A stretch of DNA of 58,642 bases, from the UHGV virus genome UHGV-0101169; one strand, 5' to 3'. The position numbers were made by a program, and so were the translations under genes. Shown piece by piece: positions 2,556-57,735 of this stretch (the first letter of the stretch is position 1; each line of letters opens with the position of its first letter). Source of the stretch: a virus. Under the pieces are notes generated by a model, which was not told the origin of the DNA, made no database searches, and saw only the letters and a list, made by a program, of their open reading frames with translations.

Positions 2556-3173
2556 TTATTCGTTATTTGCACAAGATATAGAATCATCCCCATTGTTTTC
2601 CACTTTTGTGGATAACTTTGGGAGTGCTTCGGCTGTAAGCGCTTGTTTTGGCGGCTCAATATGTACCGGAGCAGTCTCCACTAGACCATCAACAGCTTTG
2701 CAGAGGAAGATATAACCAACATTGCCAGCTGCGGCCCCTTTGTAGCGTCCTAACCTGCATTCATTCTGCCATTTTCGGACGGTGTCGGCCCTCGAACAAC
2801 TAAGTTTAGAACACCAATCACTACTCCTATACTCACCAGAAGCCCATGAATATAATATATCTCTTGAGCATCCAATCAATAACGCAAACTCTTCTAATAC
2901 AGGCTTTTGATCATATTTATAAGCTATATCTATATACATATCCCATATATCATCTAAAAGATTAATATCGTCATATATAGCCCTAGTAAATCCCATTTTT
3001 TTATTAATATATCTTATAAGACCTGTAAACGTACTGGAGGATAGTTTATATAAGTTTTCTGGGTGTGGTAAACTGTCCTCATACTCCTGAGCATATATAT
3101 GCATATCATCTGGGTATATTTCAATACCTGCATCTGTGCTGACTGCATTAGTTTTTTTTGTAGATCTGCTCAC
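2556..3173 (-). CDS. terminase small subunit-like protein (two HTH-like repeats and a GNVGYIFLCK motif); GTG start with SD GGAGGTG
   Basis: The C-terminal AAGNVGYIFLCKAVDG resembles the TerS 'GNPxGxIFxLKN' motif. IGCSRDILYSW and SCSRADTVRKW form two HTH-like repeats. The track ORF extends upstream over non-coding leader A. GTG lies 7 nt after GGAGGTG. Confidence 0.45.
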   Translation of the reverse strand: MSRSTKKTNAVSTDAGIEIYPDDMHIYAQEYEDSLPHPENLYKLSSSTFTGLIRYINKKMGFTRAIYDDINLLDDIWDMYIDIAYKYDQKPVLEEFALLIGCSRDILYSWASGEYRSSDWCSKLSCSRADTVRKWQNECRLGRYKGAAAGNVGYIFLCKAVDGLVETAPVHIEPPKQALTAEALPKLSTKVENNGDDSISCANNE

Positions 3174-3197
3174 TGTATCACCTCCAGAAAAGAATAT

Positions 3198-3290
3198 AAA
3201 AAACGCCCACAGACAGAACCGATATAGATCCCATCTGTGAGCGTGTAGCCTCGAATTTTGCCGTCCTTGCTCCTGCTGCCTATCCTGATC
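3198..3290 (-). promoter_or_regulatory. conserved leader element copy A ending in an intrinsic terminator (CGCUCACAGA-loop-UCUGUGGGCG-U6)
   Basis: A near-copy lies at 36308-36397. Shared blocks in mRNA sense are AGGATAGG, AG(C/T)AAGGACGGCAAAA, CACGCTCAC and GTGGGCGTTTTTT. It lies ~25 nt upstream of the TerS-like start. Confidence 0.55.
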
Positions 3291-3797
3291 CGAGTTGTGC
3301 GCCCTTCTCACGGCTCCAGGGCAACCCTACAAGACTCAGCTATATTGTACATAAAGCATACACCAGATTTTTTTATCTGTCAAGCATATACACTATGTCA
3401 TTTTTACAGATACCCCAGACCCTTATATATAATATATATTAATAATAATTATCGTTGATTATATTAAAAATAAAATATATAAAAAAATTAATATAATAAT
3501 TAAATTCGCCAAAGGGATTAAAAGAGATAAAAGGATATAGAATAATAATAGGGGGTATGGGGGAAAGAAGAAGGGAAAAGGGAAGAAGAGAAATTAAGGG
3601 AAAGGACACATTTTTACACGCATTGTCTACCCGCTGATCTGCTCACCTTGCCCGGCCGCCCGGGTCCGGTCCGGTTGCGATCTTTGTAGCCCTGGAAAAC
3701 CTAGGATTTGCGCCGGTTTCCGGGATTTATGAAAGTTGCCCGGCGCAGCTCCTGAAAATGTCATCAAAGCGTAAAAATAGACGGTATGAACACAGGG

Positions 3798-3940
3798 TGA
3801 ACCAGAAAGCGAACTAACACATGAACCACCAGACGAACTAGCAAAAACCCAGTAAATACAAGGTTTTTAGAGCATATGAGAACAGCAGGCGAACCAACTA
3901 ACGAACCAGTAAACGGACACCCAGACGAACCAACAAGACA
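3798..3940. repeat. iteron cluster R: at least four ~22-bp units TGAACCA-N5-6-CGAACTA(R)C
   Basis: Units tgaaccagaaagcgaactaac, tgaaccaccagacgaactagc, cgaaccaactaacgaaccag and gacgaaccaacaagacac. An inverted homologous cluster lies at 35388-35469. Confidence 0.6.
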
Positions 3941-3941
3941 C

Positions 3942-3969
3942 AAAAAAGGGGCCATATTCGACCCCTTTT
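3942..3969. terminator. bidirectional intrinsic terminator (A6-GGGG..loop..CCCC-T4)
   Basis: aaaaaaGGGGccatattcgaCCCCtttt. In minus sense the hairpin is followed by U6, directly downstream of the 3999..4154 gene. Confidence 0.5.
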
Positions 3970-4216: not shown

Positions 4217-4245
4217 ATTATATACTATTATTAGTATAATATCAA
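4217..4245 (-). promoter_or_regulatory. consensus sigma-A promoter (TTGATA-17-TATAAT) with the 18-bp palindromic operator TATACTAnnnnTAGTATA in its spacer
   Basis: Minus-sense TTGATAttatactaataatagtaTATAAT. The palindrome spans 4221-4238. An identical 18-mer lies at 4569-4586. Confidence 0.6.
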
Positions 4246-4249
4246 TAGG

Positions 4250-4477
4250 TTAATAAAATTTTATTTTTTCGTCATCTGTTGGGATAACCTCGATAATATC
4301 ACCAGGTTGCATTTTTAACATGATACAGATTTTGTTTAGCGTATCTAATGTAATGCTTTTTCCTGCTTTTATGTTCTGCATCGTTTGCCGTGGTAACAGA
4401 TTGTCACGCTGCAATTTTGTTTGATTGTATCCCCTTTCTTTCAATTCTTTAAACACATCAATTTTATAATTTATCAT
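4250..4477 (-). CDS. XRE/Cro-CI family HTH transcriptional regulator (HTH_26-like), candidate repressor
   Basis: Sequence MINYKIDVFKELKERGYNQTKLQ...IKAGKSITLDTLNKICIMLKMQPGDIIE is a classic HTH_26 pattern. SD AAGGAGG. It sits between two outward-facing operator-bearing promoters. Confidence 0.7.
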   Translation of the reverse strand: MINYKIDVFKELKERGYNQTKLQRDNLLPRQTMQNIKAGKSITLDTLNKICIMLKMQPGDIIEVIPTDDEKIKFY

Positions 4478-4561: not shown

Positions 4562-4590
4562 TTGACATTATACTATTATTAGTATATAAT
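4562..4590 (+). promoter_or_regulatory. consensus sigma-A promoter (TTGACA-17-TATAAT) with the same 18-bp palindromic operator in its spacer
   Basis: TTGACAttatactattattagtaTATAAT. Operator at 4569-4586. Drives the plus-strand operon beginning at 4640. Confidence 0.65.
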
Positions 4591-5101: not shown

Positions 5102-5377
5102 ATGACAAAGAACGAAATGCTGAAAGAACTTGATAGACTGGAGAAAGAAAAAGGCGTTGACCTGGACGGAATCGGCCAGAACAGCAATAAAAGCACTATC
5201 CAGAACGCTATAAACTGCCTGTTATGCCCAGATGATCTGTTAGAAAAGTATTTGACCGTTTTAACGCTCAAATACCCAAATACAGGCGCAAAAATCTCAG
5301 AAAATGGAGACTTTAAAAAGCACCGTTTCAATCGGTTATATGTTTTCAATACCGCCAGAATGATTTTAGCAGATTAA
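5102..5377 (+). CDS. hypothetical early protein (91 aa)
   Basis: ORF with SD AAAGGAGAA. GC-rich stem-loops flank it. Confidence 0.55.
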   Translation: MTKNEMLKELDRLEKEKGVDLDGIGQNSNKSTIQNAINCLLCPDDLLEKYLTVLTLKYPNTGAKISENGDFKKHRFNRLYVFNTARMILAD

Positions 5378-5441
5378 GCCGAAACGCCCGTTAGGGCGTC
5401 CGGATCGGGTGCCGCCGGTTCGCTGATGATGGCAGGCAGAA

Positions 5442-5729
5442 ATGAATAACACTATGAAAAAAAGATATAGAAACGAAAACGGACAGCTTACAGTGAGCCT
5501 TGACCAGATTAAAAAGGAAACAGCCGCAGAAGCTGCCAAATATTACCACGTAGGAGGGATTTACCTTAATTCCGAAGACTCCCGTGAATATGTCATGATC
5601 GAAGCCGGGATCCTGGCACACTTTCAGAGTTTTGACGGGTATAACTTATTTATCCCAGCTGACAGCCTGGGCACATTCCTTCCGGATGTAGCCACGGAGG
5701 GCGCGGAACTGGTAGAAACTGAATACTAA
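5442..5729 (+). CDS. hypothetical early protein (95 aa)
   Basis: Plus-strand ORF in the same operon. Codon usage is consistent with its neighbours. Confidence 0.55.
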   Translation: MNNTMKKRYRNENGQLTVSLDQIKKETAAEAAKYYHVGGIYLNSEDSREYVMIEAGILAHFQSFDGYNLFIPADSLGTFLPDVATEGAELVETEY

Positions 5730-12391: not shown

Positions 12392-13741
12392 TTACAAAGT
12401 AACAAAACGAATCGTAATTTCGTCCTTGTCAACCACTATATCTTCAACGCATTGCTTCAATATTTTGTTTTTTTCTTTCAATGTCAAGCTGTCCCAAACA
12501 TCTGACATATGCCTGATTTCTGCTATTTTTGTTGGATCACACCTCTTTTCTGTTTTTGCATCATCGAGTTTCTTTTTTAATTTCTTGATATTTTCTTCCT
12601 CTGCTTTTATCACATCAAGTAGATTTTCGCTAGGGTTATCTGCATATAAGCCGTACAACCGCCTAACTTTTGTATCAGATTTTTTTAACGATTCCACTAA
12701 AATTTCAGTGCTATCTTGATGGCTTTCAGTATACTCATTAATATTAATGGCAAAATTTTTAAAACATTCTTCCACTTCTGCTTCGATTTTATAAGCATCT
12801 ACTGGATGATTTTTGCAACAATCTGACTTTCGCATATATGCTTTTGAACTTTGATAATGTGAATAGCACACCAACTTCATTGTTTTTGCAGTCCATTTCT
12901 GGTATCTCATTCTTGCGCCGCAGTAACCACAATGGCACAAACCTGTCAGTAAATGTCCGCTACTCAAATAAGCATTGGTATGTCTTTTTTTCATTTCGTC
13001 TTGGACTTTCCAAAATACCTTTTCATCAATAATTGGTTCATGTCTGCCTTTATATACCTTGCCTTTATATTCAATTAAACCAATATTTGATTTTCGTTTT
13101 AAAATCCCCTTAACTATTGGTTCACCTTTAAATCCAAGAATCTTTGAAATGTTTTCGCAAGAAAATCCATTTAGATACAGATCATATACTTTTCGCACCA
13201 CAGACGCTTGTTGCTCATTAATGTGTAATATGCCATCATTGCGATCATAATAATATCCCCATGGGGTTCTGCCACCACCCATCCAATATCCTTTTTTTAC
13301 GCGTTCTAACATCCCGGCGGACATTCTCATTCGAATAACTTCACGTTCATACTGGTTCATGGCCGCATTCATTGTCAACATCATCCTGTCCATTGGATTT
13401 TCTGTCCGTAGTTCTTCAGTCATAGAAATAACCTTAACTCCATATCCAGGAAGAATTTTGTAAAACAAGTTCAGCGTATCAATAACATCTCGGCTCATGC
13501 GATCAAGCTTGTAGATGTACACTGTATCAATGATTCCGCTTTTTGCGTGGTTCAAAAGTTCTTGAATCTCTGGTCTGTCAAGTTTGCTTCCACTATACCC
13601 CCCATCTATGTACCATTTGTCAATAGTAATACCATGTTTTTCACAGTAATCCATTATTTTTTGTTTCTGCATATCCAAGCCGTACTTTTCAGTCTGTGTT
13701 TCTGTTGATACTCTCAAATATGCCACCTGCAATTTGCTCAT
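12392..13741 (-). CDS. large serine recombinase (integrase)
   Basis: N-terminal resolvase catalytic domain (YLRVSTETQ...), recombinase domain and Cys-rich zinc ribbon (CHCGYCGARM). 449 aa. Confidence 0.85.
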   Translation of the reverse strand: MSKLQVAYLRVSTETQTEKYGLDMQKQKIMDYCEKHGITIDKWYIDGGYSGSKLDRPEIQELLNHAKSGIIDTVYIYKLDRMSRDVIDTLNLFYKILPGYGVKVISMTEELRTENPMDRMMLTMNAAMNQYEREVIRMRMSAGMLERVKKGYWMGGGRTPWGYYYDRNDGILHINEQQASVVRKVYDLYLNGFSCENISKILGFKGEPIVKGILKRKSNIGLIEYKGKVYKGRHEPIIDEKVFWKVQDEMKKRHTNAYLSSGHLLTGLCHCGYCGARMRYQKWTAKTMKLVCYSHYQSSKAYMRKSDCCKNHPVDAYKIEAEVEECFKNFAININEYTESHQDSTEILVESLKKSDTKVRRLYGLYADNPSENLLDVIKAEEENIKKLKKKLDDAKTEKRCDPTKIAEIRHMSDVWDSLTLKEKNKILKQCVEDIVVDKDEITIRFVTL

Positions 13742-13798: not shown

Positions 13799-14146
13799 TC
13801 ACTTTGTCTTAGTCAATTTCTCAGCAAGTATTTTTTTTACACTTTCTATTTTAATTTCATTATTTTTCAGATCTTCCTTTGTAACACGCTGTCCATTAAC
13901 ATAAATTGTAGTCATGTTTTCAAACACCTCCAAAAAATCAATTATTTTTCTGAAAACAATTTTCTTCTTTTTGGTTATGCTGGAAAGCGACAAATTCAAC
14001 TTTTCTGCCATTTGAATATCACTAGCACCAGCACTTGCCATTTTTAATAATATGATTTCAGTTTGCGAAAAATTACAGTTATCCAATAAAAAATCAACTT
14101 CTGGCTTACTCAGTTTATTAAACCCTAACCGCATAAGCCCTCCCAT
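13799..14146 (-). CDS. sigma-70 region-4-like HTH regulator (candidate late-gene activator)
   Basis: LSKPEVDFLLDNCNFSQTEIILLKMASAGASDIQMAEKLNLSLSSITKKKK fits the sigma r4/LuxR HTH pattern. Confidence 0.45.
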   Translation of the reverse strand: MGGLMRLGFNKLSKPEVDFLLDNCNFSQTEIILLKMASAGASDIQMAEKLNLSLSSITKKKKIVFRKIIDFLEVFENMTTIYVNGQRVTKEDLKNNEIKIESVKKILAEKLTKTK

Positions 14147-15516: not shown

Positions 15517-16151
15517 TATGACTGCCTCCATTCATCTATAAGATTTCTATCTGTATGGGTTTCAGGCTGCTTCCGTGTTCTCTCCCATGTCCTAACAGCA
15601 GCTTTCCAGTCTTTCATCTTGTTTTTGCCTATCATCCAGCCTTTAGAACTGTAAAAATTTACAAAAGATTGAGCATCAATTCCATTTTGCCTTTGCTCAC
15701 AGTAAGCCTGGACCTCATCCGCTGTTGGTGGAATAAAAATCTGTCTTTTTGGTTCAGGCTTTTTCTCTGCGTTAGGTGGTTCATCTGGTGGTTCGTTAGG
15801 TGGTTCACTCAGATTTTCGGTAACCTGAAATTTATTGTAATTTACTACGTTTATCAGCGTTCCTCTGTTGGTTCGCTCCGTGGTCACCATTTGTTCATCC
15901 TCCAACAGTTTAAGGAATCGTTTAACTTTATTTCTGGACCATGACCAACGGGCACTTAGCTTCTCTATGCTGAACATATAGGAGCCTTTTGGAACTATGG
16001 TAGTCTTGCCGTCTATCAACATTTTTACATCCTTATGAGAAGCTGAAAGCAATATATCTATCCAAGCTGATCTTCTATCAAACGCCTCCCTACTGTTCCA
16101 AATAGAACAGTCAAATATTTGTCTATGTAGCTTTATCCAGCCTTTTTCCAT
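15516..16151 (-). CDS. phage replisome organizer (DnaD-like N-terminal domain)
   Basis: MEKGWIKLHRQIFDCSIWNS...SRNKVKRFLKLLEDEQMV, plus the C-terminal motif FVNFYSSKGWMIGKNKMKDWKAAVRTW. Confidence 0.6.
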   Translation of the reverse strand: MEKGWIKLHRQIFDCSIWNSREAFDRRSAWIDILLSASHKDVKMLIDGKTTIVPKGSYMFSIEKLSARWSWSRNKVKRFLKLLEDEQMVTTERTNRGTLINVVNYNKFQVTENLSEPPNEPPDEPPNAEKKPEPKRQIFIPPTADEVQAYCEQRQNGIDAQSFVNFYSSKGWMIGKNKMKDWKAAVRTWERTRKQPETHTDRNLIDEWRQS

Positions 16152-26783: not shown

Positions 26784-26993
26784 CTATCTTGTTACCAACC
26801 ACAGTGCCAATGCTGCTCCAACCATCATCAGCCCTGCTACTACAATCACTGTATCCGCAACCTTCCAAAAGATTTCTTTCCAGTGTTTTTTTTCAGTCTT
26901 AATTGCCACGTAGCTTACACCAAGCGGGCAATCATGATTTTTCATCTTTGCCATTTTTCCAATACCTTTCTTGTGGTATAATCTCCTTATCAT
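26784..26993 (-). CDS. small membrane protein (one TM)
   Basis: Hydrophobic C-terminal helix. Divergent from the 27015 gene. Confidence 0.35.
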   Translation of the reverse strand: MIRRLYHKKGIGKMAKMKNHDCPLGVSYVAIKTEKKHWKEIFWKVADTVIVVAGLMMVGAALALWLVTR

Positions 26994-27014
26994 TTAACAA
27001 GGAGGTGAATTAAA
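26974..27014 (+). promoter_or_regulatory. conserved promoter/operator/SD module copy 1 (TGgTATAAT-CTCCTT-N10-AAGGAGGTGA)
   Basis: The 34-nt string ggtataatctccttatcatttaacaaggaggtga is identical at 28945-28978. Confidence 0.6.
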
Positions 27015-28115: not shown

Positions 28116-28931
28116 CTACGCACAATACTTAACTTCATACTCCTGGACGATTTTGGAGTAAATCTCACGAAGTTTCTTGTCATGTTCAATTACATCAATC
28201 TTTTTGATGTCAATCTGTTTCTTAGTTCCGCCAGCGTTTTCAATTCTCTGCTTCATGTTTCTGACACGTTTACCCAAATCGGCGCCAGCCCTACGTTCAA
28301 GTTCCTTATGCATTTCAGCCTGTAACTCTGCATAACCAATATTTGCTTTGAGAGCAATCTTTACTATTTTTGCCCTGATCTCCACACGCCAGTTATCCAT
28401 AATTGGTTTAACAGCTTCTTTGATATTCTCCGTAGTCTCAACAGCTTTCCGCGCTGTTTCATTCGCAAGAGCTATCTTCCGGTCGCGTTCCTTATCTTCC
28501 AGCTCTTTATTTGCAATGCTCTGCGCTAATTGCAAAATGAGTTGTGTCTGTGGAGATAAGTCCTCTGTGGCAAGTTTCCTTGCTTTAAAGTAGCCATTTA
28601 CAAGCTGTCTCTGAACTGTCCACGCCAAATCGTCCGTAAACGACTTGACTAACATCAAATAACCTTGTTCTGTCAGAAGAACCACTTCATTGTTTGGATT
28701 TCCGCCTTTTGAGTTAGGTACGAAATTCGTACAGAACTCTGAATACGGTATTATAAAGTAATCTTCATCTTTTATAAAATGTTCTCTATTTACATTGAAA
28801 TTTCTTTTTGCCGTTCCCTCAGGTCTTTCATGGACCATATCAATATCTTTCAATGTAATCACTCTTTGATTTCGATATTCTTTTACTGAAATATCTGAAT
28901 TTCTGATACGTATTAGCTCATTCATTTTCAT
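28116..28931 (-). CDS. ORF6N-domain antirepressor-like protein
   Basis: VKEYRNQRVITLKDIDMVHERPEGTAKRNFNVNREHFIKDEDYFII fits ORF6N. Confidence 0.6.
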   Translation of the reverse strand: MKMNELIRIRNSDISVKEYRNQRVITLKDIDMVHERPEGTAKRNFNVNREHFIKDEDYFIIPYSEFCTNFVPNSKGGNPNNEVVLLTEQGYLMLVKSFTDDLAWTVQRQLVNGYFKARKLATEDLSPQTQLILQLAQSIANKELEDKERDRKIALANETARKAVETTENIKEAVKPIMDNWRVEIRAKIVKIALKANIGYAELQAEMHKELERRAGADLGKRVRNMKQRIENAGGTKKQIDIKKIDVIEHDKKLREIYSKIVQEYEVKYCA

Positions 28932-28944
28932 TCACCCTCTTTCA

Positions 28945-28984
28945 TGGTATAATCTCCTTATCATTTAACAAGGAGGTGACAAAG
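28945..28984 (+). promoter_or_regulatory. conserved promoter/operator/SD module copy 2
   Basis: Identical 34-mer to copy 1. Extended -10 TGgTATAAT at 28945-28953. Confidence 0.6.
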
Positions 28985-29471: not shown

Positions 29472-29834
29472 ATGAAAGATCGTATAAAAGAAGTAAGAAA
29501 ATCTACCGGAATGACTCAAGTTGAGTTTGGTGAAAAACTTGGAGTAAAAGGAAACACTGTTACAAATTATGAAACTGGTCAAAGAACCCCTACAGACGCA
29601 GTTATACGTTCTATTTGCAGAGAATTTCATGTAAACGAAGAATGGCTCAGATATGGAACCGGAGAAATGTTTCCACCGAAAACCAAAGACGAATTGATTT
29701 CTGATATGATAGGAGAAATTCAAAGGTCTGGTGAAGACAATTTTAAGCACAGGCTTGTATCGGCGCTTTCAAAGCTAAGTAAGTCTGATTGGGAAGCATT
29801 AGAAAGATTAATTGATTCTATTGCAAAAAAGTAA
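29472..29834 (+). CDS. XRE-family HTH transcriptional regulator (CI/Cro-like)
   Basis: TGMTQVEFGEKLGVKGNTVTNYETGQRTP is a canonical HTH_3. Confidence 0.75.
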   Translation: MKDRIKEVRKSTGMTQVEFGEKLGVKGNTVTNYETGQRTPTDAVIRSICREFHVNEEWLRYGTGEMFPPKTKDELISDMIGEIQRSGEDNFKHRLVSALSKLSKSDWEALERLIDSIAKK

Positions 29835-35371: not shown

Positions 35372-35387
35372 TTTTGTGGTCCGCCTG

Positions 35388-35469
35388 GTAGTTCAAGTGG
35401 TGGTTCAACAGGTAGTCCGTTAGGTGGTTCAATAGGTAGTTCATCTGGTGGTTCGTTGGTTGGTTCAAT
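35388..35469. repeat. iteron cluster R' (four ~22-bp units, inverted relative to cluster R at 3798-3940)
   Basis: Reverse-complement units tgaaccaaccaacgaaccacc, tgaaccaccagatgaactacc, tgaaccacctaacggactacc and tgaaccaccacttgaactacc. Confidence 0.6.
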
Positions 35470-35650: not shown

Positions 35651-36277
35651 TTAAAGCTCATAATCTGGATAAACAGCTTCCCAAACATCTTTATGATAAG
35701 CATTAATCGACCCATAATTAGCGTCGAAGATCTTCTTGACTTCGTACCCCATACGTTCCCCAGCCTCTTTTAGCCTTCTCCATTTGAATGTTTTCCAAGA
35801 AACATTATTCAGTGCTGCTACTCGCTTGATAGAGTACCAATCTTTGCTTGTATCAAGCTGTGCCTGTAGCTCTGCTTCCCGATCCAGGCTTTCCAAAAGC
35901 TGTGCGATAGCGTCCCGGTAAGACATCGGCATATTCATCTTATCGTCTTTCTTCTGGAAGTAATTGTCAACTAGGCGGTCATACACTTCCCACGCCTGAT
36001 CCGTGTTCAGGGACTTAGCGTGAAGAAAAGCACCTTTTTCTGTCCAAAGGTAAATTGTTTTTGCATTTTTCAGACCGTCGTGATTTTCCAGACGGTTCAC
36101 AAATAGGGTCTTTTCTTCATTTTCAAGTTTTATAAAATGTTTTCCTTCTATAAAACGATCAATATTGTGGTTAAAATTGTACGAGATTGTTTTTCTGTCC
36201 GTTCCATACGCTTCCGCAATCTGCTGTGTGGTTAAAACTCTCTGGCATCTGTACTCTGTTACTTTTAATCCTTCCAT
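35651..36277 (-). CDS. ORF6N-domain antirepressor-like protein
   Basis: TEYRCQRVLTTQQIAEAYGTDRKTISYNFNHNIDRFIEGKHF. SD GAAGGAGA. Confidence 0.6.
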   Translation of the reverse strand: MEGLKVTEYRCQRVLTTQQIAEAYGTDRKTISYNFNHNIDRFIEGKHFIKLENEEKTLFVNRLENHDGLKNAKTIYLWTEKGAFLHAKSLNTDQAWEVYDRLVDNYFQKKDDKMNMPMSYRDAIAQLLESLDREAELQAQLDTSKDWYSIKRVAALNNVSWKTFKWRRLKEAGERMGYEVKKIFDANYGSINAYHKDVWEAVYPDYEL

Positions 36278-36307
36278 CCAATTATCTCCTTCTGTATTTA
36301 AAGCAAC

Positions 36308-36397
36308 AAAAAACGCCCACCAGACATAGATTTTCTACATCTAGTGAGCGTGATTCTTAAACTGTTTTTGCCGTCCTTACTCAGTTCGTCCTATCCT
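36308..36397 (-). promoter_or_regulatory. conserved leader element copy B ending in an intrinsic terminator (CGCUCAC-loop-GUGGGCG-U6)
   Basis: Shares AGGATAGG, AGTAAGGACGGCAAAAA, CACGCTCAC and GTGGGCGTTTTTT with copy A. Compensatory U-G pair in the stem. Confidence 0.55.
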
Positions 36398-36465
36398 TTA
36401 AGCCTTGTTTTTCCCGCAACGGCTATTGGGCAAAGCTGATGGATTCGGCTAAATTTTACCCTTTT

Positions 36466-36494
36466 ATTATACCTGTTTTAGGCTGGAATATCAA
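36466..36494 (-). promoter_or_regulatory. consensus promoter TTGATA-17-TATAAT driving leader B
   Basis: Minus-sense cTTGATAttccagcctaaaacaggTATAAT. Confidence 0.55.
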
Positions 36495-53893: not shown

Positions 53894-54337
53894 TCATTTT
53901 GACTCATTGTAGGACACTTTGCCACCTAAATACTTATTCCCGTACATATTTTCAAAAACAGCCAATGCATTGTAATAAATCCTTTTGACTTGTTTAAGCG
54001 AAATATCACCTCTAAGTCGAATGGTTTTTAAATCCTTATCCAAAATAAACTTCTGACACAGAACATCATACATATTCGTATCTGGAATGCTTTCAATTTC
54101 TTGAACAATCTCATATCGCTTATCAATAATATTGTCAACTTCACGTTCCATATCTACAATTTTGGAAACATATGAACTAATTTTGTCAGGATTCTTCGAG
54201 GTCTGTATTCTATCACCATTACTCTGAACAGCCGATGTGCTGTAGATAATAGACCTTAGATTTTCAACTTCCTTTAATTTATTTTCAATCATTCGATTAT
54301 ATCTTACTACTAAAGATAAATACTCTCTCGTTTCCAT
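53894..54337 (-). CDS. hypothetical protein (147 aa)
   Basis: ORF only. Abuts the terminase stop. Confidence 0.45.
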   Translation of the reverse strand: METREYLSLVVRYNRMIENKLKEVENLRSIIYSTSAVQSNGDRIQTSKNPDKISSYVSKIVDMEREVDNIIDKRYEIVQEIESIPDTNMYDVLCQKFILDKDLKTIRLRGDISLKQVKRIYYNALAVFENMYGNKYLGGKVSYNESK

Positions 54338-57177
54338 TATCCAAACCTCCTAAACGGATTTATTACTGCTTCAACCTTTGCTGTCCTGTTCCCTTGCGTA
54401 ATCCTAAGCGCAAAGTTTGAGAATACATCTGGAACATCGTCTAATTGCTTCTTTCCAGATACAGAATATTGCTTAAGCAACGTCATCATCACACCATATG
54501 GTTCTTTCGGTGTATACTTTGACGCATCTTTGAATATCACATGTTGTAATATCCAGTTTGAGCACTGGAAGATACGTGCTTCTTTGTTAGTTTCAGTAGG
54601 GACATCAGTGATATTACAAATCCATCCCTTTGCTTCTACTCGCTTATTGACTTCCATTGCTACACGGTCACCACCAGCATTTCTCTCAAATTCGCACTCA
54701 ATAACCTCGTTATTGACAAGCATATTTGCCGCATTTTCATACTGCATTTCATAATCTGCTGTATTGTCGCACACGGCATCCACACAATAATAATCTTCAC
54801 CAAATTTTTGGAATACTGGCATAACAAAATAATCAGTTCCCTTACCCTTGGTATCGCACTGAGCTGTGACAATCTCAGGTACACCATGTGGCAGATTCAA
54901 ATATCGCCTGATTTTATCTTCTGGGAATAACAGGCCCTCACGTTCAATAGGCTCCTGCTTATACAGACATTTGTATGAAATATCATCCATCAATAATTGT
55001 TGGTCTGCAAAGAACTCCTCGTCAAAGCCTGAGAATTCATAATCAAAATTGCTCTTTCCAGTAACCGGATCAACATCAGGAACAGCAATTACCTTTACCC
55101 TCGGATTACCTTCATACATTTTTTGGATACGCCCTATGACATCCTGGACACTCCATCTGGTTGCAATGTGTATTTCCTTACAATTCTTACCATCAGTATC
55201 TTTGATTTTTCTTTGGCGTGCATCTACGGAATACTTACTCCACAACTTTTCAAGTATAGCCGGATTCAATGCTTCCTCGATACCGCCAATCATATCATCA
55301 ACCAGCAGAAACTTAGAAGCACGGACTTTACCCGCATTTTTGCTTCCTACTGATGTGCACTGCACAGATGGGAACGGCTTATATTTTCCTACGTTGAACT
55401 GTTCTGTCTTTGCATTTGTACTTGTCACATACAAATCAGGGAAAATCTCATTCCATGCATATTCGTCTGAATTAGTAACTATATCATATATACCGTCATA
55501 GTACATTCTGGTAATATCACCGCTATGGGAATAAAACAAATTGAAGTCTTTCGGATACCAGCCAATTACTGCAGCATTGAAGAATTTTTCAATGGTAGTA
55601 TTGTGAGTAATAATGTAATCATCTGTAATGTACAAATGGCAAGGATTATCAATCATAATACACTGGCACTCTTCTTCTCCTACATACTCAATATTTTTTA
55701 TATAACGTTTCCAAAGCTTGCGTTTTGGATTATATATTTTAGCTTTTCTCTCTAACCAAAATGGATTATCATGATTTGCACTAAACAAAATTGTAATCCT
55801 ATAGTTATCAAGGCACGAAACACTATTGCCGTCCTTGTCTCTGTACCCAGATTTCCGTTTTGTTAAGCTCGCATATCCTCCCAAAGAACGTACTAATTCT
55901 GTTACATTTTCCGCAAGTTTTTGAGAGGCTGTTGAATATTCTATTCCCTTGTATTCTGCGTATCCGTCTGTATCTAACAATCCACGTAATAGCCACAATC
56001 TTTGTTCATGACTTGAATATAGATATTCTTCTGGTATAAATTTTGTAGCAGATTTTGTACCAAGAAGGCCTAATCTATTTAGTTCCTCTTTTAATAGGTT
56101 GGGTTTTTTTGCAGCATCTTTAGAGCGCAAATAATAATCTTTATCACTTCCACGTTTTAGGACAAACTCATATCCGCCAATGAGTGAATTGATTTTTTCA
56201 ACTATTTCTTTATCTTTTTTTGTAAAGCAAATTGTTTTTGTACTTAATCCACCATCTCCCAATAAGCATCCAAGAAGATACGGGTGTATATAAAACTTTT
56301 TTTCTTCAAAGGCTTTAATTTCGGGAACATAGTCTATAGAATAGTTTTTCCTTCCGTCTTTTTCAATAATAAAATCTTTAAGCATATCTTCCGTTTTTAT
56401 TATTCTTGTCCTATGATTTCCCGTCCTTGTTTCAAATTGTCTATCACACCGATTTTGTACTTCCCATAAGTGATTATCTGAAACTTCTGTAAAGCCTCCG
56501 TCATTCATTGTAATTCTGTATATTCGGCGTTTCCCTTGTGGATATACTCCAATAACAGACGCTTTTTCTCCGTCTCCGGCCACAACCTTTGTTCCAACCT
56601 TTACATCACGCATTTCAATGAATCCGCTTGGTGTTAGGACTTTAGACGACATCTTTCCAGCTTTCCCGGCACCAGGAATAAGGCTAATGCACAAAATGTC
56701 GTACTTGTCATCAATCATGCCCTGTAAAGCATCCACCAAACCGATTTTAAGCAGCTGTTTGCGCCTAGGCATATAAAACCGCTCTTTCGGTTCTCTTTTG
56801 TGCTCTATATACCTGAAAAAACTGTCAATCACTTTATGTTGAGCTTCTAAAAGCAAAACCGAATAAAAACAGTCTATCAGCTCCAATATGGTTTTATTGG
56901 TTGTCTTATACTCAAATGCATATTTTTCCAATTCCCATATAGCACCACCTGTCTGTTCTAAACAATAACGCTCCGTCAGCTCCTTTGAGCGCTTTGCAAG
57001 TTGTAATCCATAATGAATATCATTTTCACCATTAATAGCCACTGCGCAAGCCTTTGCGTATGCCTGAACAACCCGCCAATCGACACCGTTAGCCTGTATG
57101 TAATTTTCATATTCCCTGATTGTTTGCTTCAGATTTTCGGAAGCCAAAAGAAAAGCACCTCCACTTTCAAAAAGCAA
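54337..57177 (-). CDS. terL: terminase large subunit interrupted by an intein; TTG start (an alternative TTG 30 nt downstream has SD GGAGGTG)
   Basis: P-loop region LIPGAGK..., Walker B KFLLVDDM, C-terminal nuclease-like region. 946 aa because of a ~350-aa intein. Confidence 0.8.
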   Translation of the reverse strand: MLFESGGAFLLASENLKQTIREYENYIQANGVDWRVVQAYAKACAVAINGENDIHYGLQLAKRSKELTERYCLEQTGGAIWELEKYAFEYKTTNKTILELIDCFYSVLLLEAQHKVIDSFFRYIEHKREPKERFYMPRRKQLLKIGLVDALQGMIDDKYDILCISLIPGAGKAGKMSSKVLTPSGFIEMRDVKVGTKVVAGDGEKASVIGVYPQGKRRIYRITMNDGGFTEVSDNHLWEVQNRCDRQFETRTGNHRTRIIKTEDMLKDFIIEKDGRKNYSIDYVPEIKAFEEKKFYIHPYLLGCLLGDGGLSTKTICFTKKDKEIVEKINSLIGGYEFVLKRGSDKDYYLRSKDAAKKPNLLKEELNRLGLLGTKSATKFIPEEYLYSSHEQRLWLLRGLLDTDGYAEYKGIEYSTASQKLAENVTELVRSLGGYASLTKRKSGYRDKDGNSVSCLDNYRITILFSANHDNPFWLERKAKIYNPKRKLWKRYIKNIEYVGEEECQCIMIDNPCHLYITDDYIITHNTTIEKFFNAAVIGWYPKDFNLFYSHSGDITRMYYDGIYDIVTNSDEYAWNEIFPDLYVTSTNAKTEQFNVGKYKPFPSVQCTSVGSKNAGKVRASKFLLVDDMIGGIEEALNPAILEKLWSKYSVDARQRKIKDTDGKNCKEIHIATRWSVQDVIGRIQKMYEGNPRVKVIAVPDVDPVTGKSNFDYEFSGFDEEFFADQQLLMDDISYKCLYKQEPIEREGLLFPEDKIRRYLNLPHGVPEIVTAQCDTKGKGTDYFVMPVFQKFGEDYYCVDAVCDNTADYEMQYENAANMLVNNEVIECEFERNAGGDRVAMEVNKRVEAKGWICNITDVPTETNKEARIFQCSNWILQHVIFKDASKYTPKEPYGVMMTLLKQYSVSGKKQLDDVPDVFSNFALRITQGNRTAKVEAVINPFRRFG
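55600..56649 (-). mobile_element. intein with LAGLIDADG homing endonuclease inserted in the terminase P-loop
   Basis: Hint block A (SSKVLTPSGF...VGTKVVAGDG) aligns to canonical inteins. Block B SDNHLW. Two LAGLIDADG motifs (LLGCLLGDGGL; LWLLRGLLDTDGYA). C-terminal ITHN followed by Thr. Confidence 0.75.
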
Positions 57178-57627: not shown

Positions 57628-57735
57628 GATTTTCCTCCATATTAATTGCCCGGCTGCCGTCGCGTCTACAGCATCTCTTTTGACCATATTGGTGCGTGGG
57701 TGCAACGAACTTTCCTACCTCGGGCAAACATGATT

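Follow-up and report, generated by a model that had tools for sequence, protein, structure and literature searches.

A duplicated leader RNA with covarying helices and an adjacent terminator in phage genomes, a candidate antitermination signal

Textbook examples of late-gene timing are the lambdoid Q proteins and the activators RinA and ArpU; to our knowledge, the timing of late genes in temperate phages of gut Firmicutes is largely unknown. Here we describe an RNA element found in UHGV virus genome UHGV-0101169, a stretch of 58,642 nucleotides (nt). This whole stretch is referred to as the window, and positions are counted in it unless a relative is named. The element occurs twice, in the leader of a late gene (copy A) and in the leader of an antirepressor gene (copy B), each time between a promoter and an intrinsic terminator. 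RNA antiterminators that precede terminators have been described in mobile elements of Gram-positive bacteria, namely conAn2 (PMC8191782) and canT of Tn916 (PMC11658703), and put and EAR are reviewed in the same papers.

Like the element, put of phage HK022 and EAR of Bacillus are short structured nascent RNAs in cis (~70-120 nt) that lie after a promoter and before terminators (PMC8191782, PMC11658703). EAR contains a pseudoknot, put is carried by a phage, and both are proposed or shown to make the polymerase terminator-resistant (PMC8191782, PMC11658703). Unlike put and EAR, the element is followed 12-20 nt on by a strong terminator that is conserved as part of the unit, and the genes it heads are late genes and a moron cassette, not early operons or the eps operon. 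No sequence or structure homology to either was found in Rfam 15 at E values up to 10. The N/nut and Q/PR'-tR' systems of phage lambda share with the element a constitutive promoter, a short terminated leader (lambda '6S'), late genes that start with packaging or lysis functions, and phage-specific interchangeable modules. However, nut combines boxA with a 15-nt boxB hairpin and qut is a site in the DNA, whereas the element is a covarying 88-nt two-helix RNA domain. In contrast to lambda, scans of the window proteins revealed neither an N- nor a Q-like protein, and the host is probably a Firmicute.

conAn of pLS20 and canT of Tn916 are, like the element, leader RNAs of mobile elements that are poorly conserved between elements, and they allow read-through of an insulating terminator and of the internal terminators of a long operon (PMC8191782, PMC11658703). 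They differ in their length of 300-450 nt, in heading conjugation operons and, for conAn, in the need for the ConAn1 protein, and they show no similarity to the element. The descriptions of conAn2 (a 383-nt region with a GC-rich box and SL1/SL2) and canT (452 nt) do not fit it. In function, put, EAR, conAn2, canT and the lambdoid PR'-tR' layout come nearest to the element, which is homologous to none of them. The fluoride, ZTP, preQ1 and SAM-II riboswitches resemble the element as compact hairpin-plus-tail RNAs with invariant unpaired nucleotides and a terminator directly downstream, and a pseudoknot is possible in the element. In contrast to these riboswitches, the element is phage-restricted and has no Rfam match, antiterminator helix or pseudoknot covariation.

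The leader unit and its RNA domain

At both loci, which lie on the minus strand (~3197-3383 for copy A, ~36307-36494 for copy B), a near-consensus sigma-70-type promoter is followed after ~10 nt by an 88-nt domain, a linker of 12-20 nt, an 18-base-pair (bp) terminator with its U-tract, a Shine-Dalgarno sequence (SD) and a gene. The domain starts ~10 nt past the likely transcription start. The blocks AGGATAGG, AG(C/T)AAGGACGGCAAAA, CACGCTCAC and GTGGGCGTTTTTT are present at both loci. The window contains the 13-mer AAGGACGGCAAAA at two places and no others (3256-3268 and 36366-36378), and none of 100 shuffles reached its count of near-matches. A covariance model built from relatives detected copy B at 98.2 bits (E 5.8e-22) and copy A at 62.2 bits (E 2.9e-13); more than two copies in the window were ruled out, as the third-best match of the model scored only 17 bits. 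The duplicated leader is real and far beyond chance.

A sequence-only reading of the window had claimed a cis-leader that occurs twice, downstream of sigma-A-like promoters and ending in an intrinsic terminator, before a late (TerS-like) gene and an antirepressor gene. Consensus scans confirmed the promoter and a genuine terminator in both copies, and the two gene contexts hold as well, with an ORF6N-domain protein behind copy B. The same reading gave the element a size of ~90 nt. Its conservation was correctly seen but its extent was underestimated: conservation continues 5' of AGGATAGG with YCGARUC, then CCC, GCCGU and GGG, so that the 88-nt domain reaches further 5', and the whole unit including linker and terminator spans ~150 nt. 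All relatives have a matching promoter architecture, and dozens of them repeat the whole order of parts from promoter to gene. No operator common to promoters A and B and the early promoters was found.

The domain is built of two helices. P1 pairs 5'-YY-GA-AUCC with GGAU-A-GG-3' around a small internal loop. P2 comprises a lower helix that is variable in sequence (P2a), an A-rich 3' bulge and an upper helix (P2b, CCC/GGG), closed by a loop of 12-13 nt that contains (U)GCCGU and has the conserved core (G/A)(C/U)CG. A short A-rich joining region (J2/1) leads back to P1, and the purine-rich 3' tail ends in the invariant GAGCA(A/G)GGACGGC(A/G)A. The L005 type has an additional hairpin after the 5' strand of P1, which covaries too.

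The helices were assessed on two alignments. In the alignment made by the model, double changes were present in 13 of the 16 pairs and 94% of the cells were paired; none of 500 shuffles reached these values, and all slid registers were far lower. The hand-condensed alignment of 15 types showed compensatory changes in 6 of 6 pairs of P1 and 6 of 8 pairs of P2, although its fitting to the structure inflates the percentage paired, not the existence of double changes. Compensatory variants of P1 include CCCCG/CGGGG (L199), AUCUC/GAGAU (L249), GUUCUG/CAGAAU (L256) and AUCGC/GCGAU (L310); the outer P1 pair is UC/GA in L006, and P2b is GAUCC/GGAUC in L310. ViennaRNA folds of single sequences gave P1 and P2 unaided for L241, L249, L256, L005, L038 and L199. 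Because the compensatory double changes lie far above those of shuffles and slid registers, the comparison indicates that the P1-P2 structure is under selection in the RNA.

A pseudoknot between GCCGU of the loop and ACGGC of the tail is possible, and this complementarity reaches 6-7 bp in L161, L199 and L005. Covariation was not seen for this pairing, and changes in four types break it internally or at one end, namely GCCGA in L249 and L202, ACCGU in L310 and GUCAU in L160.

In the terminator, the lower 7 bp (ACGCUCA/UGGGCGU, with a U.G pair) are invariant across 12 aligned types, and the upper stem covaries freely. The conserved U-G pair of the sequence-only reading is present in both window copies and in these types, but it is replaced by U-A (GUGAGCG) in L080, L162, L177, L190 and others. 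In L310, a compensated change from C-G to U-A lies one pair above it. Domain and terminator formed separate modules in minimum free energy folds of 13 types and in RNAalifold. When the tail, the P2 loop (GUGAG), J1/2 and the P2b strands were compared with both terminator arms, by hand and by folding, no conserved antiterminator helix was found; the sole conserved complementarity to the terminator 5' arm is that of GAGY in the tail to GCUC, 4-5 bp.

The family was recovered by exact-pattern scans and then by model searches (IMG/VR, metagenome assemblies), in which true matches scored at least 35 bits and noise at most 26 bits. This placed the element at dozens of loci in uncultured phage contigs, predominantly from the human gut, with ~15 distinct sequence types. 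Types A, L241, L310 and L199/L202 lie 5' of homologues of the gene behind copy A, which encodes 205 amino acids (aa). Types L005 and L006 precede 214-216-aa proteins at the same position, which are ~22% identical to the 205-aa protein and have only a C-terminal motif in common with it. Types B, L003, L157, L161, L180, L249 and L256 lie 5' of accessory cassettes. The covariance-model search of related phages, which the earlier reading had suggested, thus returned covarying P1 and P2 helices and the element at the same two kinds of locus in homologous phages, which leaves that reading unrefuted.

No homologue was found in GenBank phages by blastn. An exact-pattern scan of 185,579 prokaryotic species (one genome each) found no true copy, and all 12 matches were chance occurrences in coding regions. 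Against Rfam 15, both leader regions gave chance-level matches only (≤18 bits) at E values up to 10, and relatives L199, L241, L249 and L256 had no match within the leader. At the gathering threshold, the whole window yielded two tRNAs, a skipping-rope RNA and a Hammerhead_II ribozyme, all outside the leaders. A known RNA family is ruled out at the gathering and the permissive thresholds, in agreement with the earlier reading, which did not recognise a known riboswitch class. L068 was considered as a divergent member or a cobalamin-like RNA and rejected as a chance pattern match overlapping a tRNA-like sequence on the opposite strand. We class the element as a previously undescribed RNA family whose kind of control, a leader RNA with a terminator, is already known. 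The large catalogue of candidate phage RNAs of Fremin et al. 2023 (PMC10690425) may list it without description.

An extra copy of promoter and domain without a terminator of its own was observed in L159 (3929-4276, minus strand), L160, L196 and L167 (12310-12397). Immediately past GGACGGCAAAA, this copy continues into the 3' end of an unrelated gene (...VYFEVPEDAESVELEYDINFWQSDKIIFVGK*), whose terminator it uses. The fusion in L159, L160 and L196 appears to be a recombination remnant that marks the module boundary.

Candidate modes of control

Attenuation, antitermination and riboswitch-like control had all been named by the sequence-only reading; among them, the classical folding switch found no support. 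The same reading had proposed that a sigma-r4-like protein (13799-14146) acts on the conserved blocks; nothing was found to link the two, and the protein has only a weak GerE match (E 0.002) below the Pfam cut-off. The element has covarying helices and conserved unpaired nucleotides, as a riboswitch-type conserved domain does, but no expression platform of competing helices was found. The 3' strand of the putative aptamer does not overlap the terminator 5' arm. A leader peptide was also ruled out: copy A contains only a 14-codon AUG open reading frame (ORF) without SD, and copy B contains none. With independently folding modules, no conserved alternative helix and no leader peptide, the analysis lends no support to classical attenuation or riboswitch mechanics. 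Independent modules would fit factor- or polymerase-mediated antitermination better than a folding switch.

Our preferred explanation, held tentatively and at somewhat less than even probability, is that the element is an antitermination signal of the nut/put/EAR kind combined with a checkpoint terminator, set over the late operon and, in the second copy, over an accessory antirepressor cassette. We infer that read-through is regulated, that the domain is its cause and that the effect is processive. The strong host-type promoter would fire, and the first ~100 nt of the transcript would fold into the compact P1-P2 domain with its invariant purine-rich 3' tail. Shortly (12-20 nt) after the domain, the polymerase would reach the efficient 18-bp terminator. 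The folded domain would make the elongation complex terminator-resistant, acting on RNA polymerase alone or together with an early post-induction factor; for a temperate phage, the factor-aided variant seems likelier than an RNA acting alone. The modified complex would pass the leader terminator and further intrinsic terminators of the ~25-kb late operon, and polymerases left unmodified would terminate in the leader, yielding a ~150-nt RNA. Through the second copy, the swappable antirepressor/accessory cassette among the tail genes would come under the same control.

Further strong terminator-like hairpins were found in the minus-strand late operon at 57184-57154, 50480-50458, 45057-45036, 43398-43369, 37837-37818, 37460-37434 and 37086-37053, and they would make a processive mechanism useful. 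The position is that of processive RNA antiterminators, with a structured cis RNA between the promoter and the terminators of a long operon. The restriction of the family to phage or viral contigs in our searches also counts in favour of antitermination.

Several observations weigh against this explanation. No Q, N, NusG/LoaP-like, ANTAR or CAT/BglG protein was detected among 50 window proteins (PHROGs; 20 with Pfam), with several small or unknown ORFs outside the scan. Three unknown proteins conserved upstream in L006 matched nothing in PDB sequence searches, and a neighbourhood comparison found no gene that co-occurs with the leader class. Regulators of the XRE and ribbon-helix-helix (RHH) types lie near some leaders, none of them specific to the class and none present in all types. 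If the RNA acted alone like put, the adjacent terminator would never stop its carriers, which would make a regulatory benefit doubtful. The antitermination model also offers no explanation for a lower terminator stem that is invariant in sequence while the upper stem covaries. Very long terminator stems reportedly resist antitermination of the conAn type, according to a paper cited in PMC11658703.

The locus itself bears on the choice. Every inspected homologue of the 205-aa gene is preceded by an AT-rich spacer, a consensus promoter, a ~150-nt leader, a terminator and an SD. In many phages the sequence of the leader is wholly different, and at least five to six other classes were distinguished (L214, L232, L234/L236, L207, L244, L311); L216 and L222 (~1000-1200) are also among the loci with unrelated leaders of the same design. 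These classes had no Rfam match, and the broadened model R2 did not detect them as distant homologues of the element. The leader of the L214 type has a 14-bp terminator stem that encloses the entire structured part; its exact terminator pattern was found once per contig, a search that a diverged second copy would escape. Because leader class departs from the phylogeny of the downstream gene, the locus carries interchangeable regulatory modules of one design. This pattern would be expected for phage-specific antitermination (N/nut, Q/qut), and less so for a metabolite riboswitch.

An ON-type riboswitch with a non-canonical platform is unlikely in our estimate. In this case the 88-nt domain would be an aptamer, and the binding of a small molecule or ion, for instance a nucleotide-derived signal of the state of the host, would suppress the terminator and license the late genes and the antirepressor cassettes. 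The compact domain with its covarying helices, invariant unpaired nucleotides and possible loop-tail pseudoknot resembles many aptamers, but the pseudoknot does not covary and its ends are broken in the four types named above. The terminator follows the domain directly and its lower stem is invariant, as is frequent in expression platforms; yet no antiterminator or mutually exclusive pairing is conserved beyond the 4-5 bp of GAGY/GCUC. The genes that follow this one domain are of unrelated kinds (TerS-like, ORF6N Ant, Rha, Bro-N, DnaD-like and GIY-YIG), and tail and loop are kept where the helices have wholly changed (L199, L310), which suggests a conserved partner. Against a riboswitch, the scan found no copy in bacterial chromosomes outside phage contexts, related phages have unrelated leaders at the same locus, and no Rfam relative was found at E up to 10. 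We are equally doubtful that the domain is a new riboswitch class, carried by temperate gut phages alone, that senses a host small molecule (for example a stress signal, a quorum signal or a nucleotide second messenger). If it were, it would provide an RNA-level input to the lysis-lysogeny or induction decision, licensing the packaging/late operon and swappable antirepressor cassettes.

A low probability is also given to a stand-alone small RNA (sRNA). In this reading, the product would be the terminated transcript of ~150 nt, which would work in trans by means of its invariant single-stranded tail, by base pairing or as a decoy for an RNA-binding protein such as CsrA, and the downstream genes would be expressed by leak-through only. 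This explanation is compatible with antitermination, as the lambda 6S RNA and IsrK of Gifsy-1 illustrate, and IsrK serves as a precedent (PMC4825925). An sRNA gene is built in this way, from a strong promoter and a strong terminator, and there are two paralogous copies per genome. However, the unit is always co-oriented with a gene that begins ~25-100 nt downstream; because this gene has an SD and no promoter of its own, it appears to depend on read-through. The predicted folds leave the invariant 13-nt tail GAGCA(A/G)GGACGGC exposed, with its GGA placed by RNAalifold in the loop of a 2-bp mini-hairpin, and the tail resembles the CsrA site consensus (the predicted site BS1 of C. difficile fliC is TGACAAGGATGT; PMC8523840). 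This likeness covers just 6-8 nt and a single conserved GGA motif, the invariant CA(A/G)GGAC. A second GGA motif (GGAUAGG) lies within P1 and is lost in L249, L256 and L310, and the SD of the downstream gene always adds another. No csrA-like gene was found among the scanned window proteins, and we treat the resemblance of the tail to CsrA sites as a lead only.

Far less probable is Q-type control at the DNA level, with an RNA fold that is secondary or incidental. Here a phage protein would join the polymerase during a sigma-dependent pause near the promoter and carry it past the leader terminator. The layout is that of lambdoid PR'-tR' (constitutive promoter, ~150-200-nt terminated leader, late genes), and a -10-like hexamer (TACAAT, TAAAAT or GAAAAT) follows 5-7 nt after the -10 in ~8 of ~13 types, reminiscent of the sigma-dependent pause at lambdoid PR' promoters. 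However, chance alone makes such hexamers common in AT-rich DNA, the flanks of the -35 and -10 are not conserved between the two copies, the window protein scans detected no Q-like protein, and the compensatory changes point to selection on RNA pairing beyond the DNA sequence. The remaining probability falls to other explanations or to no function.

Gene contexts and the surrounding genome

Class A copies open the packaging/late module. The label 'TerS-like', given to the first gene behind copy A by the sequence-only reading, stands on position (the first gene of the packaging module, 5' of TerL) and is backed by no Pfam, PHROG or fold match. None of the 185 homologues of the 205-aa protein is named. 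Its AlphaFold2 (AF2) model has a predicted local distance difference test (pLDDT) score of 72, and the fold gave no support for TerS, with a best Foldseek match in PDB (E 1.4) that was not significant. Public gene calls in close relatives (e.g. DAV40797.1 and DAZ75531.1; 251-256 aa) start the ORF within the leader and run through the terminator, which corresponds to 2556-3311 (minus strand) in the window; these calls are probably mis-annotations.

Class B copies lead an inserted cassette that is flanked by the tape-measure gene and a conserved 137-aa tail gene. Its cargo differs from relative to relative (ORF6N Ant, Rha, Bro-N, DnaD-like helix-turn-helix (HTH), GIY-YIG/T5orf172), and the insertion is absent in more distant phages. 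An int-alpA RNA (47 bits; L249 2266-2334, plus strand) was observed in the cargo region directly past the terminator of the element. A 12-nt tandem repeat (GGTGGTTCA-like; coding strand GAACCACC) occupies 35373-35467, in the non-coding stretch from the antirepressor cargo to the 137-aa tail gene, and is kept in relatives (L256 ~3330-3400); it is also present at 15773-15807.

The window reads as the genome of a temperate, siphovirus-like phage in circularly permuted form, and most of its genes are encoded on the minus strand. Besides the genes of Table 1, it encodes RecT, an SSB, a DnaD-like loader, a methyltransferase, several HNH endonucleases and a long structural operon. TerL lies downstream of the 205-aa gene, across the window ends.

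Table 1. Coordinates of the two leader units, their parts and selected genes of the window
Feature	Position	Strand	Details
Promoter A	3383..3355	-	-35 TTGACA (3383-3378), 17-nt spacer, -10 TATGCT (3360-3355); consensus scan, 10/12
Promoter A, extra -10-like hexamer			TACAAT, 5 nt downstream of -10
Promoter B	36494..36466	-	TTGATA, 17-nt spacer, TATAAT; consensus scan, 11/12
Promoter B, extra -10-like hexamer			TAAAAT, 7 nt downstream of -10
Domain A, 88 nt	3256..3343	-	Covariance model and comparative helices, parse matched to the actual sequence
Domain A, P1	3339-3338 + 3335-3330 / 3287-3282 + 3280-3279		Paired strands
Domain A, P2a	3327-3323 / 3296-3292		Paired strands
Domain A, P2b	3322-3318 / 3305-3301		Paired strands
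Domain A, P2 loop	3317-3306		GCCGU inside at 3314-3310
Domain A, invariant tail	3272-3265, 3264-3260		GAGCAAGG (3272-3265), ACGGC (3264-3260), then AAAA
Domain B, 87 nt	36366..36452	-	Covariance model and comparative helices
Domain B, P1			CC-GA-AUCC with GGAU-A-GG
Domain B, P2			AGCUUUG-CCC with GGG-(AAAAA bulge)-CAAGGCU
Domain B, loop			AAUAGCCGUUGC
Domain B, tail			GAGUAAGGACGGCAAAA
Linker, copy A			11 nt
Linker, copy B			14 nt
Terminator A	3244..3203	-	18-bp stem-loop, U6 at 3202-3197; consensus scan
Terminator B	36351..36313	-	18-bp stem-loop, then U6 (to 36307); consensus scan
Start codon behind copy A	3173		GTG; SD GGAGG 3185-3181
Start codon behind copy B	36277		ATG
First gene behind copy A, 205 aa, all-helical	2556..3173	-	'TerS-like' by position only
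Cargo behind copy B, ORF6N-domain antirepressor, 208 aa	35651..36277	-	Pfam ORF6N E 8e-22, PHROG anti-repressor families
Serine integrase	12392-13741		
CI-like repressor	29472-29834	+	
Antirepressors, two	28116-28931; 35651-36277		
Large terminase (TerL)	54337-57177	-	LAGLIDADG homing-endonuclease/intein insertion at residues ~380-465; Pfam scan

Upstream of copy A, ~560 nt of pyrimidine-/AT-rich non-coding DNA (3384-3943) extend from a strong terminator (3970-3943, minus strand) to promoter A, and together they insulate this promoter from upstream transcription. Contig ends of related IMG/VR assemblies fall inside 3384-3943, and this stretch may be a packaging site or genome terminus. Two tRNA genes (69-141 and 807-879, both minus strand) are flanked by the TerS-like gene cluster on one side and the terminase region on the other. 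The skipping-rope RNA (57645-57728, minus strand; 52.7 bits) is immediately 5' of the large-terminase gene, within the late operon.

The Hammerhead_II ribozyme (type II hammerhead; 5377-5441, plus strand) scores 41.5 bits, which exceeds the gathering score, and fills the exact gap between the ORFs 5102-5377 and 5442-5729. These ORFs belong to a plus-strand cluster of five unknown genes with a 12/12 consensus promoter (4562-4590). That promoter and the divergent near-consensus promoter at 4217-4245 (minus strand) have the nearly identical spacer ATTATACTA(A/T)TA(A/T)TAGTA, which is probably a common operator for the adjoining Cro/CI-type HTH protein (4250-4477). A 44-nt repeat, 91% identical between its copies at 26965-27008 and 28936-28979 (plus strand), contains an extended -10 (TGGTATAAT) and an SD; each copy leads a small plus-strand ORF in the immunity region.

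Meaning for late-gene control

With its clear helices, invariant 13-nt tail and natural compensatory variants, the element is a tractable candidate for an RNA-based gate of late genes, and a control module that has been copied before mobile antirepressor/accessory cassettes. Because relatives have unrelated leaders of the same design at the locus, there may be a whole repertoire of leader-terminator modules that can replace one another. Should a ligand or phage factor be found, the element would offer a handle on the induction of gut prophages and a compact orthogonal part for synthetic transcription control.

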